DNA from: a virus
Strand: one strand, 5' to 3'
Length of the DNA stretch: 43,269 nucleotides
UHGV virus genome: UHGV-0027971
Notes under the pieces: generated by a model
Database searches by the model: none
Seen by the model: the letters and a program-made list of their open reading frames with translations, nothing else
Told to the model about the DNA's origin: nothing
Program-made: the position numbers and the translations under genes
Part shown: in pieces, positions 3,975-41,720 of the stretch
Numbering within the stretch: position 1 is the stretch's first letter
Layout: every line of letters begins with the position of its first letter

Positions 3975-4269
3975 GTTGCGACCTCGATATCTTGAAGATT
4001 TGCACGACGTTGCCGCGCGTCTTCAGCACCGCGGCGAACATCACAGCATTGATAACGACCTCAGAAAGATCTGCGGTCATGGGGAAGTGGTACAGGTATG
4101 AGTACGCGGTGCGAAGCGGGATACTGGCCGCCGCCACGATGAGGAAATAGGCTATCCACCCACCCCAGCGGCGGTGGCGCGATCCGTTGCGCTGGAAGAA
4201 CATCACCCTCAGCGCTATCCCGCCGCAGATGAGGGCATTAGCGATAAGCAGCAGATCATGGCCTGTCAT
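3964..4269 (-). CDS. holin/antiholin-like small membrane protein
   Basis: 101 aa with about three hydrophobic helices, directly upstream of the endolysin. Confidence 0.5.
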
Positions 4270-4669
4270 CGTCTTTTCCTCCCGGGATTAAATCGCGCGG
4301 ATTGTCAGAGCGGTGATACAGCCATATCCCGACCCGCACCGCGACAATTGCCGCAACGAACGCGCCGGCGGAGTAGACAATACCCCGCTCGAACGAGTCC
4401 TGTGTGATGGTGGGGATCATGCTGGCAACGCCGATAAGGATTGATGCTGTGGGTTTGTAGAATAGAAGGCCGCAGAGAAAGCTGAGTAGAGCCAGGAGAA
4501 CACGGCGCTTGACAGGATACTCAACAGCTGAGGTAACAAAAATTACCGCCCCTGCCAGCGATCCCAGCGCCACTTCTGGCGGTACGCCGGCGATAACTGC
4601 CGCCAGCGCACCATAGCTAAGCCCCTGATTTATCGTGTCAGCGGTTAGCGATGCAGACATGATGACCAC
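4256..4669 (-). CDS. holin-like membrane protein
   Basis: 137 aa, multiple transmembrane segments and a charged C-terminal tail ([18 protein letters not shown]); first gene of the lysis cassette. Confidence 0.55.
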   Translation of the reverse strand: MVIMSASLTADTINQGLSYGALAAVIAGVPPEVALGSLAGAVIFVTSAVEYPVKRRVLLALLSFLCGLLFYKPTASILIGVASMIPTITQDSFERGIVYSAGAFVAAIVAVRVGIWLYHRSDNPRDLIPGGKDDDRP

Positions 4670-7421: not shown

Positions 7422-7440
7422 ATTGCATGGAGAAGATAAG

Positions 7441-7698
7441 ATGCAGCAGTATCACTATCCACTGGAAGAGGGATTTACCGAAAGGATTCACACGCCGGGA
7501 GGCGTCAGGTCACTGGTGGAGGGATCGCACTTGATGAAATTACTCCGGGATCTCGATAAGGATGGATTTAATGTCGATGGCCCACTTGCCGAACTGACTG
7601 CACTGATTAACTACGTCACCAGCTCACAGATGTCTATGCGGGATCTGCAAACACATCTCGACTATTGTGCCGAACAATTACGAAAACAAACCCGGTAA
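7441..7698 (+). CDS. SOS-regulated small protein, stand-alone homolog of the shared antirepressor C-terminal module (Tum-like role inferred)
   Basis: 85 aa from ATG 7441 (RBS GGAGAAG; track start 7423 is a forced TTG). Aligns with the C-termini of the proteins at 9345, 11074 and 41064 (IH.P.GV..L.E.S.LM.LL...DG..V.G..AELT...Y......RD.QTH..Y). Confidence 0.6.
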   Translation: MQQYHYPLEEGFTERIHTPGGVRSLVEGSHLMKLLRDLDKDGFNVDGPLAELTALINYVTSSQMSMRDLQTHLDYCAEQLRKQTR

Positions 7699-7705
7699 AT
7701 TTAAA

Positions 7706-7721
7706 GGCCGCAAGAGCGGCC
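7706..7721. terminator. hairpin terminator between convergent genes
   Basis: GGCCGC-aaga-GCGGCC followed by a T-rich tract; between the 7441..7698 (+) and 7721..8449 (-) 3' ends. Confidence 0.55.
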
Positions 7722-8449
7722 TATCGTTTCGCTTTGTGCTCATCCCAGCACGTTTTGCACCATGCCATTAAACCATCCGCATTTTGATTATTAGGGTAAA
7801 AGCTGGTTCGTTTTCTGCGGACATTACAAATTGGGCACCACTTCATATGGCGTGTATTCTTTGGGCCATCGAGACACCTTGCACACCACTTAGTCAATCC
7901 ATCTGGATTTTTTGACGATTTCCTGAATTTTTCATATGGAAGGTTTATTCTGCATCGCAAGCACTGCTTGCTACCACTTGAAACTCTGTTAGCTGATTCT
8001 TCTTTTGGCGGCGATACAGAAGGTATTCTTGCTGGCTCTGATACTGCCTGAGGTGCTTTTTTAGATGACTGAGACGATGTGTCATCACCAGGGAATCTTC
8101 CATGATATGCCGGACGCGTTGACACTCCAGGTGGAAGCTCTGCTGTAAATGGCTTTGGCTGAATCAGTTGCCTCTCTTTTGCTAACTCCTGCTGTTTATA
8201 ATATGTCTGGATTACCGCACTATCATAAGCAGGAGGTGCGGAAATATTAGGCGCATTACCTCCAGTTTTTTGAAACTGAGTAGAGGTGTGTTCTATCACC
8301 TGTGTACGATTAATCGTTATCTCCCCATCTTCGGTCTTTATCGTTTTGTTATGATTTACGACCGTACGATCAGAGATCTTAGTCTTGTTCTGGTTGATAA
8401 CGTAAATAATCACCGCAACCACACCAACAACTATCCAGAAAACTTCCAT
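7721..8449 (-). CDS. hypothetical membrane-anchored protein with two C-terminal zinc-ribbon-like motifs
   Basis: 242 aa; N-terminal hydrophobic helix, low-complexity S/P-rich linker, then CLRC..(x20)..WCARC and CPIC..(x20)..WCKTC. Confidence 0.5.
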   Translation of the reverse strand: MEVFWIVVGVVAVIIYVINQNKTKISDRTVVNHNKTIKTEDGEITINRTQVIEHTSTQFQKTGGNAPNISAPPAYDSAVIQTYYKQQELAKERQLIQPKPFTAELPPGVSTRPAYHGRFPGDDTSSQSSKKAPQAVSEPARIPSVSPPKEESANRVSSGSKQCLRCRINLPYEKFRKSSKNPDGLTKWCARCLDGPKNTRHMKWCPICNVRRKRTSFYPNNQNADGLMAWCKTCWDEHKAKR

Positions 8450-8604
8450 TGCTTTTCCTCACAATAACATTACCTTAAAGGTAATATCTTGCTTTCAGGT
8501 GATCAAGCATTAAACTCCATCAACCAAATACGGTTGATTTTGATATTTATTCTCGCTTATCATTACCTTTGCGGTAAATTTACATCGCACTCCTCTTGTG
8601 CCAT

Positions 8605-8690
8605 AGTAATCAGGCACTGGCAAAATCCAGTGCCGGGATTGGCGTCCCGGATTACTAGTAGGCGCATACCACGCCAGACGTGGTTTTTTT
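8605..8690 (+). ncRNA. candidate structured small RNA or leader element ending in a rho-independent terminator
   Basis: Outer stem TAGTAATC/GATTACTA enclosing hairpins GGCACTGG-caaaat-CCAGTGCC and CCGGGA-ttggcg-TCCCGG, then terminator CCACG-ccaga-CGTGG + T7 (8669..8690). Function unknown. Confidence 0.3.
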
Positions 8691-8845
8691 ATGCGTATAG
8701 CACAGTCATATCCGAATTATGGTGGGCTGGGCAGGGGCACCGAAAGGTGCGCCGGTACCTACTAGGCCGGTACGCCAACCTTGTCCAGTTCACCACCAGC
8801 AATTGGCGTTGCGGTGGTAGGTAACTTACTAGTAGAGGTATCGCT

Positions 8846-9352
8846 ATGCCAGGCCAAAAAATCTCAAACGACGATCTGTATTGGTTAATTTCTAATTCTC
8901 CACTCCTTCTTATGCTAAGGCAAGAAAGTGCACCACTGGTCAGTGAATTGATTAGCTGTAGAAATAGAATGTGGGATGAAGGGGCAGATTTAGATACCAA
9001 TTTGTTTGATCATCTTATGCAACTAGCAGTCGATAACAAGGCAAAACTACGCTCTGAATACAACGCTTATCCAGAAATAGCAAAATACCTTAACGCTGAA
9101 ATACTTGGTGGACCAGGTCAACCAGACCTAAAAACAAAAGATGGTTACCCTGTTGAGGTGAAGGTAGATACTTTTTCTCCTTCAGCATTAAAACAATTAT
9201 TAAGGTATATGGATGCTTCTGGCGCAGATTTTGGTTTTGCTTGTGCAAAAACTCTTTCTGTAAAACTCCCTGAAAACATAAAGTTCATCCAGTTAGATTA
9301 TAAAGATAATTGCTATTTCGTCGTGAAAGATGGAGGCAATGAAAATGCGTAA
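8846..9352 (+). CDS. hypothetical protein (168 aa), possible PD-(D/E)xK-like motif
   Basis: ORF with RBS GAGG; sequence KDGYPVEVKVD resembles a D..E.K nuclease core but this is a weak by-eye guess; AT-rich. Confidence 0.5.
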   Translation: MPGQKISNDDLYWLISNSPLLLMLRQESAPLVSELISCRNRMWDEGADLDTNLFDHLMQLAVDNKAKLRSEYNAYPEIAKYLNAEILGGPGQPDLKTKDGYPVEVKVDTFSPSALKQLLRYMDASGADFGFACAKTLSVKLPENIKFIQLDYKDNCYFVVKDGGNENA

Positions 9353-10064
9353 TATAGCTATTGATAAGTTGCCGATAACAACTCATTGCAACATCCCTGT
9401 AATGACTACAGAAATGCTTGCTGATTTGTATGACACAGAACCCAAACTGATTCGTCAAAACTATCAACGAAATGCAGATCGATTCATTGAGGGAAAACAT
9501 TGTTTCAAGCTGATAGGCGAAGAATTACGAGCATTTAAGAACGAGTCCTCTCAAAGAGGTTTGCTTAATATTGCACCAAAAGTAAGTCATCTTTTCTTAT
9601 GGACCGCTCGCGGTGCAGCACGACATGCGAAAATTCTTGAGACTGAAAAAGCGTGGGAGGTCTTCGAAAAACTGGAAGATTGCTACTTCGACAGAAAACC
9701 CGCAAATGTCAGTGGAGATGTTCGTCTCTCAGGTGGAGCTGATTTATCAAAGGCCACTCAGGTAATTGAAAAATTCATGCCCGCCATTATGGAGGCGATC
9801 AAGCTGGAAGACAAAAAAGAATACAGCGCCCCACTGAAGCCCGGCTACCGCAGCCTGATTCACTCGCCGTCGGGTGTTCTCGGCCTGACGGAGCACTCAC
9901 TGCTGATGAATCTGCTGAATCAGTTGCAGGAAGACGGGCACGACGTATCGGGCGCGGCGGCGGAACTGACCACCATGTTCTGCTACATCGTCGGTGTGAG
10001 TAAATGCCTGCGTGATATCCAGACGCACGCGGAGTACATCAACGACAAGGCAGGGTTCTTCTGA
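9345..10064 (+). CDS. antirepressor-like protein (ORF6N-type N-terminal domain + shared C-terminal module)
   Basis: Start taken at ATG 9345, 8 nt after GGAGG (track start 9330); C-terminal ~95 aa near-identical to those of 11074..12012 and 41064..41720. Confidence 0.7.
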   Translation: MRNIAIDKLPITTHCNIPVMTTEMLADLYDTEPKLIRQNYQRNADRFIEGKHCFKLIGEELRAFKNESSQRGLLNIAPKVSHLFLWTARGAARHAKILETEKAWEVFEKLEDCYFDRKPANVSGDVRLSGGADLSKATQVIEKFMPAIMEAIKLEDKKEYSAPLKPGYRSLIHSPSGVLGLTEHSLLMNLLNQLQEDGHDVSGAAAELTTMFCYIVGVSKCLRDIQTHAEYINDKAGFF

Positions 10065-10184
10065 CAGAACGGCGGCACAGGGATGTGCAAAACGGAACTA
10101 TCGTGACATGTCACAGGCCGCTTTCGCGGCCTTGTTTTTAACGAATGCCACCGCCGCCTGGGCGGGAATCCGCAGACACAAAAA

Positions 10185-10208: not shown

Positions 10209-10844
10209 CTATTTTATTGGCAGCTTATGCTTTGAAATTATGGCCAATCTGTTTTGGAAGTTTTCCGCATCACCCCACAACCAGGTTTCACCTTTCTCAA
10301 GTTCTTCCTCGTTATTCATCTCTATAAGTTCGCATGTCATCATGTCGTAACCATAGAGATGGAGGCCAAGTTCCAGTGCGTCATACATGCGAGCCTGCCA
10401 GAACGACATGCCTTCATGAGTCTGGTTGCGATCAGACACGATGATATCGTACCGTTCCAAGAGGTAGTTCATGAAGATGATGCCAGCGAAATCATGAAGC
10501 ACAGCACGATGCTTAGGCTTCTGGGTTCTCCATACCAATATCTGCGTGACAGGACGGCAGTTAAGATAGCTGTCAGGCTGGATAATGACACGATTGTAAT
10601 ACACTACCTCTTCGGTGAGGTCATTTATCAATGACAGTTCAAAGTGCGCCTGTGGAATCTCGCCTTTCTTACGATCGTCTACACGGACAACGCGGTATCC
10701 AGGAGCCAGAGAAACGCCTTTGACATCAGATGTGACATCGTTGCCGTTCACTAACTCTGAATACAGAGCGCGGTTGTCTGGAGTTTCGTTCAGATGAGCG
10801 AAAACCTCAGTTACCTTTGCCGGATTCAGCAGTTGTTGTGGCAT
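10209..10844 (-). CDS. hypothetical protein (211 aa), accessory gene
   Basis: Clean ORF with its own terminator and two upstream TTACC-N5-GGTAA-type sites (10886..10900, 10986..11000); no family recognised. Confidence 0.5.
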   Translation of the reverse strand: MPQQLLNPAKVTEVFAHLNETPDNRALYSELVNGNDVTSDVKGVSLAPGYRVVRVDDRKKGEIPQAHFELSLINDLTEEVVYYNRVIIQPDSYLNCRPVTQILVWRTQKPKHRAVLHDFAGIIFMNYLLERYDIIVSDRNQTHEGMSFWQARMYDALELGLHLYGYDMMTCELIEMNNEEELEKGETWLWGDAENFQNRLAIISKHKLPIK

Positions 10845-11073
10845 ACATCACCTCATAATATATAGATGCTTCTTTAAGCGGGATTTACCATTAGGGTAAA
10901 TGAACTATCCGAATGTTAAACGCCTTCGTACTCGTCAAATTTTCTCATGTGGGCTCCTCCTGTATCGGTGCCTAATCGCTATGGATCACCCGTGAGGTAA
11001 TAGTACGCTATTCACCCCCAGTCTGCAATCTGTACAGAATTATTTAAAGGCACATCCCTGTGCCGCCGTTCTG

Positions 11074-12012
11074 TCAGAAGAATCCTGCCTTGTCGTTGAT
11101 GTACTCCGCGTGGGTCTGGATATCACGCAGGCATTTGCTCACACCAACGATGTAGCAGAACATGGTGGTCAGCTCCGCCGCCGCGCCCGATACATCGTGC
11201 CCGTCTTCCTGCAACTGGTTCAGCAAATTCATCAGCAGTGAGTTCTCCGTCAGGCCGAGAACACCAGACGGCGAGTGAATCAGGCTGCGGTAGCCGGGCT
11301 TCAGCGGATAACCATAACATTTTGTCTGTGTTTTAATTGCCTCACGAAGCGCATCTAACATCTTGACTGCCACTTCATCATTCTCTGATGCAGATCCAGC
11401 AGGGAGATACTCCCCTTCAAGCGGAACCCGAGCAACAAGAGACAACGCTTCGGCGAATTGATCTTCATCAATTTCTTTGTACGAACAGCCAAAATGAGAT
11501 TTCAGTGACGACCACATGGTGATCATCGCCTTAGCCTGTTTTTCTTTTGGCAGAGACTGACCGCGACTCATGACGAGTTGTTTAATGGCTTCCTGCTGTT
11601 CAGTGGTGATTTTACCCGGCAACGCCTTTTTAGCTTTGCGTGGGTTAACTACATGGCCTTTAGTCCAGTAATCGTAGAGCACATCGTCACACTCTTCCTG
11701 ATACTGGATTACCTTGTCGCGGATTTCAGGGCGTACTTTGTTTGGACTGATGCTGTTCAACCAAGCTGCCAATTTTCGTAAAGCCATACAAATCATGGCT
11801 TGCACCCCACCGGCAGAAGGTATGGTGATTTCCACCATACCCTTCGAGAAGCGTTGAGAAATCTTCTTATGTTGAGATTTCCAGTCTAGCCCCATTCCCT
11901 CAACGATAGGTTTCATTGGGGTATACGGTTCACCGTTGTGATTGACAACATAAAGCTCTGCGCCGTGGAATGGCACGTTGATAGTAGATACCGCTGTTGC
12001 TATACTCGTCAT
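11074..12012 (-). CDS. ant: antirepressor (AntA-type N-terminal domain + shared C-terminal module)
   Basis: 312 aa; N-terminal region resembles AntA/P22 Ant-type domains; directly downstream of the arc-like gene as in P22 immI. Confidence 0.8.
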   Translation of the reverse strand: MTSIATAVSTINVPFHGAELYVVNHNGEPYTPMKPIVEGMGLDWKSQHKKISQRFSKGMVEITIPSAGGVQAMICMALRKLAAWLNSISPNKVRPEIRDKVIQYQEECDDVLYDYWTKGHVVNPRKAKKALPGKITTEQQEAIKQLVMSRGQSLPKEKQAKAMITMWSSLKSHFGCSYKEIDEDQFAEALSLVARVPLEGEYLPAGSASENDEVAVKMLDALREAIKTQTKCYGYPLKPGYRSLIHSPSGVLGLTENSLLMNLLNQLQEDGHDVSGAAAELTTMFCYIVGVSKCLRDIQTHAEYINDKAGFF

Positions 12013-12087
12013 GTCGTTAATTCCTATACGTAGTTTTACGATACTGAAGCCCTGACGGTCTGGCCACCGTTGGGCTTCGCTGTTTTA
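12013..12087 (+). ncRNA. candidate sar-like antisense RNA opposite the ant ribosome-binding region
   Basis: Plus-strand promoter inside the ant 5' end (-35 TTGATA 11978..11983, 17-bp spacer, -10 TATACT 12001..12006) and plus-strand terminator in the arc-ant gap (GAAGCCC..ACGGT-ctggcc-ACCGT..GGGCTTC + GCTGTTTTA, 12046..12087); predicted ~75 nt. Confidence 0.45.
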
Positions 12088-36219: not shown

Positions 36220-36804
36220 ATGAAAAGTATCCAGGACGTCCGCAGGCAAAATCTCAACGACTTGATCGACCGTGAATTCAATGGTGTTCAGACGCGGATG
36301 GCAGAAAAACTTGGAACTCAGGCAAATCTGGTAAACCGCTGGGCTCTTGGCAAGAAGGTTATCGGCGACCAGGTTGCGCGAAAAATTGAAGCTGCCGCCA
36401 ATAAACCCCGTAACTGGCTTGATATCGATCGCTCGCTTTCTCAGGAAGGTTTTCAGCCTGTCGGCCCAAGCGACATTGGCCAGCTGGCGGCTCACAACCT
36501 GGAACGCTGGATGAGCGAAAGCCGCGACCTTTCAACACAGGGAAAACTTCACCGCGCATCCGGCGTAGCCCAGGTGACAATCAGCCGCCTGTTAAACAAT
36601 GAGGTCAGCGTTTCCATTTCCACCCTGGAGAATGTTGCATCCGCATTCGGGCGTCACGGCTATGAATTACTGATTCACCCGCACGACCCTGCGACCATCA
36701 ACTATGATCGCTCGCGCTACGCATTGTTACCCGAAACCGAGAAAGCAAAGATCGAAAGTTACATTGAATTTGTCATCAACCAGAACGAAAAAAGCAAACA
36801 ATAA
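36220..36804 (+). CDS. putative prophage repressor with two HTH domains and no recognisable autocleavage domain
   Basis: 194 aa; HTH-like segments VQTRMAEKLGTQANLVNRWALGKK and ASGVAQVTISRLLNNE; no LexA/CI-like peptidase motif seen; occupies the cI position. Confidence 0.6.
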   Translation: MKSIQDVRRQNLNDLIDREFNGVQTRMAEKLGTQANLVNRWALGKKVIGDQVARKIEAAANKPRNWLDIDRSLSQEGFQPVGPSDIGQLAAHNLERWMSESRDLSTQGKLHRASGVAQVTISRLLNNEVSVSISTLENVASAFGRHGYELLIHPHDPATINYDRSRYALLPETEKAKIESYIEFVINQNEKSKQ

Positions 36805-40739: not shown

Positions 40740-41011
40740 AATCACGCCTGACGAATCGCGATTATCTCGCTATTGGTATTGCAGAGATTGCTGGACTCAG
40801 TGGCGCATGATTTGACAATGCCGCCAGAGCTATCGCATACTGACCGCACTAGAACTTCAAAGCGGTCACCCGCACCCGATAGCTTTGCGGCTTTTTTATG
40901 CCTGCAATTTGGCATAGTCACATCCGTACAAAGGTCGGGTGGAGAGGCGTAATACAATACCCAAAAGGGGAATATGCCCGGAGCGTCTTTGAAGGCTCTA
41001 GTTGACACCCG

Positions 41012-41034
41012 ATCACCAGCTACTAACTGGTGAT
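41012..41034. promoter_or_regulatory. palindrome ATCACCAG-N7-CTGGTGAT next to -35-like TTGACA upstream of the third antirepressor gene
   Basis: 8-bp inverted half-sites; differs from both the LexA box and the TTACC-N5-GGTAA motif. Confidence 0.4.
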
Positions 41035-41063: not shown

Positions 41064-41720
41064 ATGACCAGTCAACTCATCCCCGTATTCAACGGCACTA
41101 TATCTAACGAAACAGCCCTACTTTGCAATGCCCGCGATCTGCACGCTTTTTTAGGTGTTAAAAAGGTGTTTGCAGCATGGATTACAAATCGAATTTCAGA
41201 ATACGAATTCATTGAAAATCAAGACTATATTTTGCTTTCCAATTTGGGAAAGCAAACATCTGGTAGAGGCGGCCACAACCGCAAAGAGTACCACCTCACC
41301 CTCGATACAGCCAAAGAACTAGCAATGGTCGAGCGTAACGAAAAAGGTCGTCAGGTACGACGCTACTTCATTGAATGCGAGAAACGTTTAAGACAACAAG
41401 AAACAAAAGTGGAGAAGGTCTTGTCAGGCTTCATGCCCGCCATTATGGAGGCGATCAAGCTGGAAGACAAAAAAGAATACAGCGCCCCACTGAAGCCCGG
41501 CTACCGCAGTCTGATTCATTCTCCGTCTGGTGTTCTCGGCCTGACGGAGAACTCACTGCTGATGAATCTGCTGAACCAGTTACAGGAAGACGGGCACGAC
41601 GTATCGGGCGCGGCGGCGGAGCTGACCACCATGTTCTGCTACATCGTCGGTGTGAGCAAATGCCTGCGTGATATCCAGACGCACGCGGAGTACATCAACG
41701 ACAAGGCAGGGTTCTTCTGA
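41064..41720 (+). CDS. antirepressor-like protein (Bro-N/AntA-like N-terminal domain + shared C-terminal module)
   Basis: Start ATG 41064 after strong SD AAGGAGG (track start 41034); C-terminal ~95 aa near-identical to those of 9345..10064 and 11074..12012. Confidence 0.75.

Follow-up and report, generated by a model that had tools for sequence, protein, structure and literature searches.

The segment 8563..10064 of the virus genome UHGV-0027971 is very probably a P1/P7 immI-type anti-immunity operon, i.e., a module in which a c4 antisense RNA and an IsrK-like decoy RNA upstream of it govern the translation of genes that rouse the prophage from dormancy. Positions are those of the window, the whole stretch of 43,269 nucleotides that was analysed. 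The prophage in which the module resides is phiV10/epsilon15-like (Uetakevirus-type), an integrated podovirus-type prophage of E. coli. Membership of the RNA element in this known system is well supported; its recognition sequences are its own, and the sole departure from that system is a nuclease-like leader gene. The P1/P7 immI system was described by Citron and Schuster (1990) and by Biere et al. (1992).

When all Rfam models were run against the window, two of them, isrK and C4, exceeded their curated thresholds inside the region. The first-pass annotation of this DNA, made from the sequence without database searches, had listed sequence features that are all present where it placed them; it did not name the P1/P7 immI (c4) or Gifsy-1 IsrK system. 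It had suggested a small RNA here, and the region holds two curated ones, an IsrK-like RNA of about 77 nt and a c4 antisense RNA. They are followed on the same strand by a gene for a 168-aa protein (orf168) and an ORF6N anti-repressor gene. The parts of the module are the following:

8563..8577, no strand: operator-like palindrome TTACC-N5-GGTAA, ending right before the promoter -35
8579..8607, + strand: sigma-70-type promoter TTTACA-17 nt-CATAGT with an upstream TG (promoter scan), counterpart of the P1 promoter P1c4 (formerly P51b)
8614..8690, + strand: IsrK-like RNA (RF01394, 68.1 bits against a threshold of 50)
8614..8633, + strand: hairpin 1 of the IsrK-like RNA
8634..8649, + strand: hairpin 2 of the IsrK-like RNA, presenting a1, TTGGCGT (8639..8645)
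8655..8662, + strand: b1, CTAGTAGG
8668..8684, + strand: stem of the intrinsic terminator ACCACG-CCAGA-CGTGGT, followed by T7 (terminator scan)
8715..8800, + strand: c4 antisense RNA (RF01695, 76.7 bits against a threshold of 45)
8758..8765, + strand: b', the loop of c4 hairpin 2, CCUACUAG
8772..8778, + strand: a', single-stranded ACGCCAA
8803..8809, + strand: a2, TTGGCGT, inside the hairpin 8792..8818 (a':a2 duplex, -10.3 kcal/mol)
8829..8839, + strand: b2, CTAGTAG (8829..8835), running into the Shine-Dalgarno sequence GAGGT (8835..8839) of orf168
8846..9352, + strand: orf168, the first controlled gene, a putative PD-(D/E)xK nuclease-like protein of 168 aa in the position of the P1 icd gene
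9345..10064, + strand: antirepressor-type gene with an ORF6N N-terminal domain (Pfam ORF6N, 1e-18; PHROG 1760 anti-repressor, 2.4e-97)

Since the promoter aligns under the annotated P1 promoter TTGACC/TATAGT (P1c4/P51b), with its -10 hexamer CATAGT at 8602..8607, the transcript is predicted to start near 8614, the same place at which the Rfam isrK match begins. The IsrK-like element, with a predicted length of about 77 nt for the terminated RNA, folds with -28.7 kcal/mol (z = -2.96 against dinucleotide shuffles), and it ends in the internal terminator with read-through that had been flagged earlier and is confirmed here as the stem 8668..8684 with its T-run. The C4 match is full-length (model positions 1-87), and 8715..8800 folds with -46.7 kcal/mol (z = -4.87 against the same kind of shuffles) into the c4 architecture, in which a long closing stem surrounds two hairpins and a single-stranded segment. 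The hairpin GCACC-GAAA-GGTGC, also noticed earlier, is hairpin 1 of c4. Conservation in homologues is consistent with these structures: 11 of the 24 pairs in the c4 stems have changes on both sides across 14 variants, and compensatory changes are found in 9 of the 17 IsrK pairs, those of the terminator stem included. The flanks of c4 are conserved as well, and from the annotated boundaries of P1 c4 the mature RNA is predicted to be 8721..8797 (77 nt).

The two repeated motifs of the region are the c4 target sites a and b in P1 nomenclature. Site a, TTGGCGT, is present as a1 (8639) and a2 (8803), with its complement ACGCCAA, a', at 8772. The first-pass annotation had correctly seen TTGGCG in two separate hairpins, of which the second, ACCACCAGCAA-TTGGCG-TTGCGGTGGT, is found at 8792..8818, with a 5' arm that overlaps the 3' end of c4. 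The 7-mer TTGGCGT by itself is not unusually frequent (8 matches in the window, 6.6 expected); its significance lies in position and covariation. The motif TTACTAGTAG, likewise noted as repeated, has exactly two copies in the window, at 8652 and 8826, against an expectation of 0.01, and none of 100 shuffles reached two. Site b, CTAGTAG, is present as b1 (8655) and b2 (8829) and pairs with b'. In sequence, a1 does not differ from a2, nor b1 from b2. The predicted duplexes have energies of -10 to -16 kcal/mol overall, and the strongest, b':b2 (-16 kcal/mol), reaches across the orf168 Shine-Dalgarno sequence. In this variant b is palindromic (UACUAGUA), with an 8-nt palindrome TACTAGTA within 8652..8661 and 8826..8835; other variants are non-palindromic.

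To compare these sequences among related elements, IMG/VR was scanned with the 14-nt c4 5'-end sequence common to P1 and the window. After filtering, 66 c4 loci remained, among which b' and a' occur in 23 distinct combinations. For 22 of these, a1, b1, a2, and b2 all carry the matching complement at fixed positions, and the position of a2 is fixed across all 23 classes. The mean match length is 7.1 to 8.6 nt for cognate pairs, against about 4.3 nt for non-cognate pairs. The pairing sequences of c4 vary freely, provided that complementarity is kept. Together with the compensatory changes in the stems, this is the kind of conservation and covariation in homologues that the first-pass annotation had set as its own check. 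The module is found in 264 phage records (Stx phages, phiV10, SfV, and APSE-2 among them) and in 473 of 5426 complete E. coli genomes.

When compared with the annotation of P1 immI in NC_005856, the window has the same order of parts from the promoter through the overlapping antirepressor gene: promoter, a1, b1, hairpin and T-run, 77-nt c4, a2, b2 over the ribosome-binding site, leader gene, and antirepressor gene. The two c4 RNAs are alike in their 5' end (CCGAATTATGGTGGG) and 3' end (CCACC), and in both the loop of hairpin 2 is assigned to b' and the following single strand to a'. The annotated b2 of P1 likewise overlaps the icd ribosome-binding site. In contrast, the recognition sequences are different (a TTGACAG and b GTTAGTG in P1; a TTGGCGT and b CTAGTAG in the window), the leader gene encodes the 73-aa Icd in P1 and a 168-aa nuclease-like protein in the window, and the ORF6N-type antirepressor of the window is unrelated to P1 Ant1/2. 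The operator-like site also differs (the TTACC-N5-GGTAA palindrome against the C1 operator of P1), as does the host element, which is a plasmid prophage in P1 and an integrated podovirus-type prophage in the window. In P1, c4 is cut by RNase P to a 77-nt RNA, represses Ant synthesis, and sets immunity specificity, and the icd message, when untranslated, is ended early by Rho.

The isrK and C4 models also match the genome of Salmonella Gifsy-1, in the same order, between antQ and an antirepressor-like gene. The Gifsy-1 locus isrK-orf45(STnc1160)-anrP resembles the window in its internal terminator with read-through, in a b2 that adjoins the Shine-Dalgarno sequence, in its antirepressor output, and in an 'a' specificity (UUGGCGU / ACGCCAA) that is identical. 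On the other hand, its b (ATCACCG) is unlike that of the window, and its b2 lies directly before anrP with no separate leader gene, whereas the window has the 168-aa gene between the RNA and the antirepressor. When residues are counted from the 5' end of IsrK, G28 and G31 fall in a1 (UUGGCGU) and C159 and C162 in a' (ACGCCAA), while A107 belongs to the AUG inside the conserved c4 5' sequence AAUUAUGGUGGG. Therefore, the compensatory mutants G28A/C162U and G31A/C159U published by Hershko-Shalev et al. (PMC4825925) test the a1:a' pairing, and the published "orf45/STnc1160" is the c4 RNA, i.e., a c4 sequence read as an open reading frame (ORF). In the same work (PMC4825925), IsrK is an accumulating short RNA that binds Hfq and, supplied in trans, activates translation downstream, that of anrP more than 100-fold.

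Satellite phage P4 is alike in that a processed leader small RNA pairs with repeated complementary sites up- and downstream, blocking downstream expression. Its immunity works through the CI RNA with seqA/seqC. The CI RNA causes transcription termination, whereas the c4 RNA of the window is expected primarily to block a ribosome-binding site; moreover, the P4 outputs are replication genes rather than an antirepressor, and no sequence or model match to P4 was found in the window. P4 immunity is named as an analogue in PMC4825925.

The c4/IsrK mechanism is, in all likelihood, the following, with lower confidence in the decoy and Rho steps, which are drawn by analogy from Gifsy-1 and P1. The promoter at 8579..8607 would drive rightward transcription, and many transcripts would end at the internal terminator, yielding an IsrK-like RNA of about 77 nt with a1 and b1. 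Read-through transcripts would contain c4, to be excised as a 77-nt RNA (by RNase P in P1), and the b' and a' of c4 would pair with b2 and a2 just downstream, covering the orf168 ribosome-binding site. With orf168 untranslated, the overlapping antirepressor gene would also remain untranslated, and the message would probably be ended early by Rho as well. Because the short RNA carries the same two sites, it may soak up c4 and thereby turn the operon on, as is reported for IsrK in Gifsy-1; IsrK itself is readable as a c4 decoy. The comparison establishes the family membership, the structures, the covariation of the pairing sequences, and the gene order; the transcript ends, the processing of c4, the Rho step, what the nuclease-like and Ant proteins do, and the decoy role, by which the short terminated RNA would free the ribosome-binding site from c4, are inferred. 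In the related phage ZX5, prophage counts fell about 1000-fold on over-expression of the gene behind the module, with no change in total phage titre; the authors took this to be a shift toward the lytic cycle (PMC9782041).

Several considerations weigh against this mechanism. Transcription, processing, and translation of the locus are predictions from the sequence, the transcript start included, and the Rho-dependent step is borrowed from P1. The c4-a1b1 model RF03163 at 8601..8653 scores 43.6 bits, slightly under the Rfam threshold of 46.7. One of the 23 specificity classes (locus L071) has imperfect b pairing. The palindromic b of the window lets b1 pair with b2 (-12.7 kcal/mol), a pairing that is used in the minimum-energy fold of the whole leader, and the c4 loop can also pair with an extra site, GGUAGGUA at 8815 (-13.2 kcal/mol). 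As a second target of b', this site is probably a chance match, the closest relatives carrying G for A there. Pairing in vivo may thus be more complicated than described. In addition, the Gifsy-1 authors have IsrK act on the long mRNA and not as a sponge for free c4 (PMC4825925).

The departure from the known system, orf168, carries the motifs E71, P93-D94, E104-x-K106, and Q117xxRY121. A profile search of 1.8 billion representative proteins gave 307 relatives, and an alignment of 115 sequences shows no variation at D94, E104, K106, Q117, or Y121 and almost none at E71, P93, or R120, which bears out a D..EVK nuclease-like motif proposed in the first-pass annotation. The profile matches Cas4 (4r5q, 8.7e-7) and NucS (2vld, 2e-4) across the catalytic motifs. 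The AlphaFold2 model built from the deep alignment (115 diverse sequences) has a pLDDT of 93 and a predicted restriction-endonuclease-like alpha-beta core; with 8 close homologues alone, the pLDDT was 44 and the model unusable. The predicted fold and the motifs together support orf168 as a PD-(D/E)xK nuclease-like protein. It shares the core fold and the E...D...ExK...QxxxY motifs with NucS, Cas4, and the restriction endonucleases, and differs from them in being without the N-terminal domain of NucS and the iron-sulfur cysteines of Cas4, in having a helical N-terminal half of its own, and in being a small stand-alone protein beside antirepressor genes, with a putative nuclease activity. It belongs to PHROG 18738 and has no match in Pfam, NCBIfam, or PADLOC. 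A tblastn search of 50,697 phage records gave nothing, a single-sequence search of the PDB gave noise only, and the genome-contig scan in the search for the family gave a single locus. With P1 Icd it has operon position alone in common (BLASTP E = 17; 168 against 73 aa).

In three specificity classes the first gene after c4 is a relative of orf168, with protein identities as low as 48%. One further candidate for such a c4-controlled relative, locus L161, was set aside, as its upstream C4 match is accompanied by a terminator and no b2. More generally, the family is found beside antirepressor-type genes in about 17 independent contexts, just upstream of them, overlapping them, or fused to them, in Escherichia, Pseudomonas (one chromosome), and other hosts, and the antirepressors concerned have five unrelated N-terminal domains (ORF6N, AntA, P22_AR_N, Rha, and Bro-N). 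Among distant relatives of orf168, in two loci (L132 and L133, 2593..3234) and in several of the aligned representatives, a Bro-N or Rha domain and the nuclease-like domain form a single protein, with another Bro-N/ORF6C gene after it. Such fusions add to the evidence that the nuclease-like domain and antirepressor-type proteins are functionally linked. In some phages the family lies directly behind c4, and in others directly behind sRNA-Xcc1, a c4-like RNA. It is conceivable, although we hold this only tentatively, that the family is an unrecognised class of small PD-(D/E)xK nucleases that act as partners or co-effectors of phage antirepressors and would have to be silenced just as tightly, at the RNA level, in lysogens.

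The same gene may be seen in another light, as a harmful nuclease for which c4 serves as the RNA 'antitoxin', so that the module would be a toxin-control device for prophage stability, or for killing upon decay of c4, with Ant regulation secondary. The complete PD-(D/E)xK catalytic set kept in 115 relatives would fit this explanation, as would the occurrence of an orf168-family gene directly behind the c4-like RNA of another family (locus L162), and the P1 icd gene, in the same position, is itself reported to be toxic (PMC11897509). However, most c4 loci control the antirepressor directly, with the nuclease absent, and the orf168 family accompanies Ant genes even where c4 is lacking. The toxicity of orf168 is hypothetical, and no PADLOC or toxin-antitoxin family match was obtained. 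Furthermore, c4 would be co-transcribed on the same strand and would make short loop contacts, unlike type I and type III systems; with regard to type I in particular, c4 lies on the same strand and upstream, and orf168 is a soluble-looking 168-aa alpha/beta protein. The toxin-control explanation is therefore considered improbable. An RNA antitoxin had been among the early suggestions, and of that suggestion the related logic stands, an antisense RNA blocking the ribosome-binding site of a possibly harmful gene, while the fit to type I or III does not.

A riboswitch or attenuator had also been suggested, in which a cis-acting leader would sense a ligand or the status of translation and choose between termination at 8684 and read-through. 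The module does have an internal intrinsic terminator with conserved structure upstream, and the segment 8605..8690, described in the first-pass annotation as a three-way junction closed by an 8-bp stem, folds well on paper (-34 kcal/mol, z = -4.16). The fold and the terminator hold, but the closing stem (8604..8611/8649..8656) does not hold as a feature of the RNA. Because it overlaps the -10 hexamer and is restricted to one sub-lineage, it probably lies outside the transcript, although it could still form in a transcript from a weaker promoter-like site at 8534/8558. No riboswitch or leader family matched at E values up to 10, and no conserved leader peptide is present, the ORF in c4 varying from 8 to more than 84 codons. 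The loops and linkers that would have to form a ligand pocket vary freely and covary solely with their RNA partners; the conserved logic is RNA-RNA pairing. A ligand- or translation-sensing leader is thus very unlikely.

Least likely of all is a decayed coding remnant, which would account for a pseudogene called by PGAP at the equivalent of 8704..8800 and for the 33-aa and 111-aa ORFs that overlap the region, but not for two Rfam models above threshold, for the conservation of RNA structure through compensatory changes, or for a frame that, from the conserved c4 ATG, closes after 8-14 codons in close relatives and elsewhere runs on into the next gene. The ORF inside c4 (8719..8820; the counterpart of Gifsy-1 orf45) was accordingly rejected as a conserved gene. 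In the E. coli locus concerned, which is 98.8% identical, RefSeq/PGAP gives a frameshifted, partial 'Rha family phage regulatory protein' pseudogene and no non-coding RNA (ncRNA) at NZ_CP146681.1 1402940..1403036 (4255..4351 in our extract L001). Because the length of the c4 ORF varies so widely, the Rha call looks like a misannotation. The phiV10 record, similarly, marks the IsrK terminator merely as 'terminator' and has no ncRNA feature there.

As for the output of the c4 module, the ATG of the antirepressor gene at 9345 overlaps the stop codon of orf168 (ATGCGTAA), as expected for translational coupling, and corresponds to the RefSeq start in NZ_CP146681; an alternative start is present at 9330. 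The gene had been called antirepressor-like from the sequence, and its ORF6N and PHROG 1760 matches agree. It is one of three paralogues in the window, the others being a P22_AR_N type at 11074..12012 (- strand) and an AntA type at 41064..41720 (+ strand). Their N-terminal domains differ and their C-terminal ~80 aa are nearly identical. A different small RNA stands ahead of each: c4/IsrK for the ORF6N gene, sar (12014..12081, with Arc/Mnt-like genes) for the P22_AR_N gene, and sRNA-Xcc1 for the AntA gene. A fourth, diverged copy of the C-terminal domain stands alone at 7423..7698 (+ strand). The shared 3' ends of two of the antirepressor genes form a 258-nt inverted repeat, 96% complementary (9831..10088 and 11050..11307), which encloses 961 nt including a 211-aa gene (10209..10844) and could allow inversion or recombination.

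The RNA ahead of the AntA gene, sRNA-Xcc1 (RF02221), is matched at 40933..41022 with 62.9 bits against a threshold of 53. In the literature searched, sRNA-Xcc1 is treated as an integron-borne RNA with an unclear role. Its architecture is like that of c4, with a closing stem, two hairpins, and a 3' CACC. Four further loci were examined together with that of the window:

L130, 3641..3724: sRNA-Xcc1
L160, 2447..2538: sRNA-Xcc1
L161, 2652..2736: sRNA-Xcc1
L162, 1880..1962: sRNA-Xcc1

In all five loci the loop of hairpin 2 is complementary to two sites, one upstream and followed by a terminator-like hairpin, the other adjoining the Shine-Dalgarno sequence of the next gene. Each of the five has a different loop, and the targets change along with it. 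In the window the target motif is AACTTCAAAG, at 40853 and 41045 (0.09 copies expected), and the controlled gene is the AntA-type antirepressor from 41064. From these sequence comparisons, sRNA-Xcc1 appears to behave like a c4 analogue.

The palindrome before the promoter is not confined to the module. In the form (A)TTACC-N5-GGTAA(T) it has 11 exact copies in the window, and 19 with at most one mismatch, against 0.78 expected. The exact copies begin at the following positions:

7350, 8470, 8563, 10885, 28499, 31618, 33795, 33857, 36150, 36862, and 36924: palindrome (A)TTACC-N5-GGTAA(T)

The copies are mostly intergenic, and pairs of them lie on both sides of an HTH gene (36220..36804); in relatives the arms are kept and the spacer is variable. 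The palindrome looks like a dispersed operator on which the prophage repressor would act, with a parallel in the C1 operator at the P1 c4 promoter. The copy nearest to that at 8563..8577, at 8470..8484, lies ahead of a divergent gene (7721..8449, - strand). The 242-aa product of this neighbour has an N-terminal hydrophobic segment and C-terminal cysteine-rich repeats that resemble the zinc ribbons of endonuclease VII/HNH-type and Lar-like proteins (PHROG 6762; weak Stc1 match). The boundary of the conserved module is near 8555, and the -35 of the weaker promoter-like site at 8534/8558 falls outside it.

For the RNA itself, these results change little, as they add one further member to a family already curated in Rfam. 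In current genome records, however, the c4 module is left without annotation or is called a pseudogene. The correspondence with Gifsy-1 is now explicit, in that its "IsrK" is the a1/b1 element, and its "orf45/STnc1160" the c4 RNA, of the P1 system. The 23 matched combinations of recognition sequences point to a large mix-and-match immunity code. Finally, the cargo of this module is led by a conserved nuclease-like gene that recurs beside antirepressors, which suggests a second activity in anti-immunity modules. If active, the orf168 protein could aid induction, e.g., by DNA damage that triggers the SOS response, or could attack a competing element.

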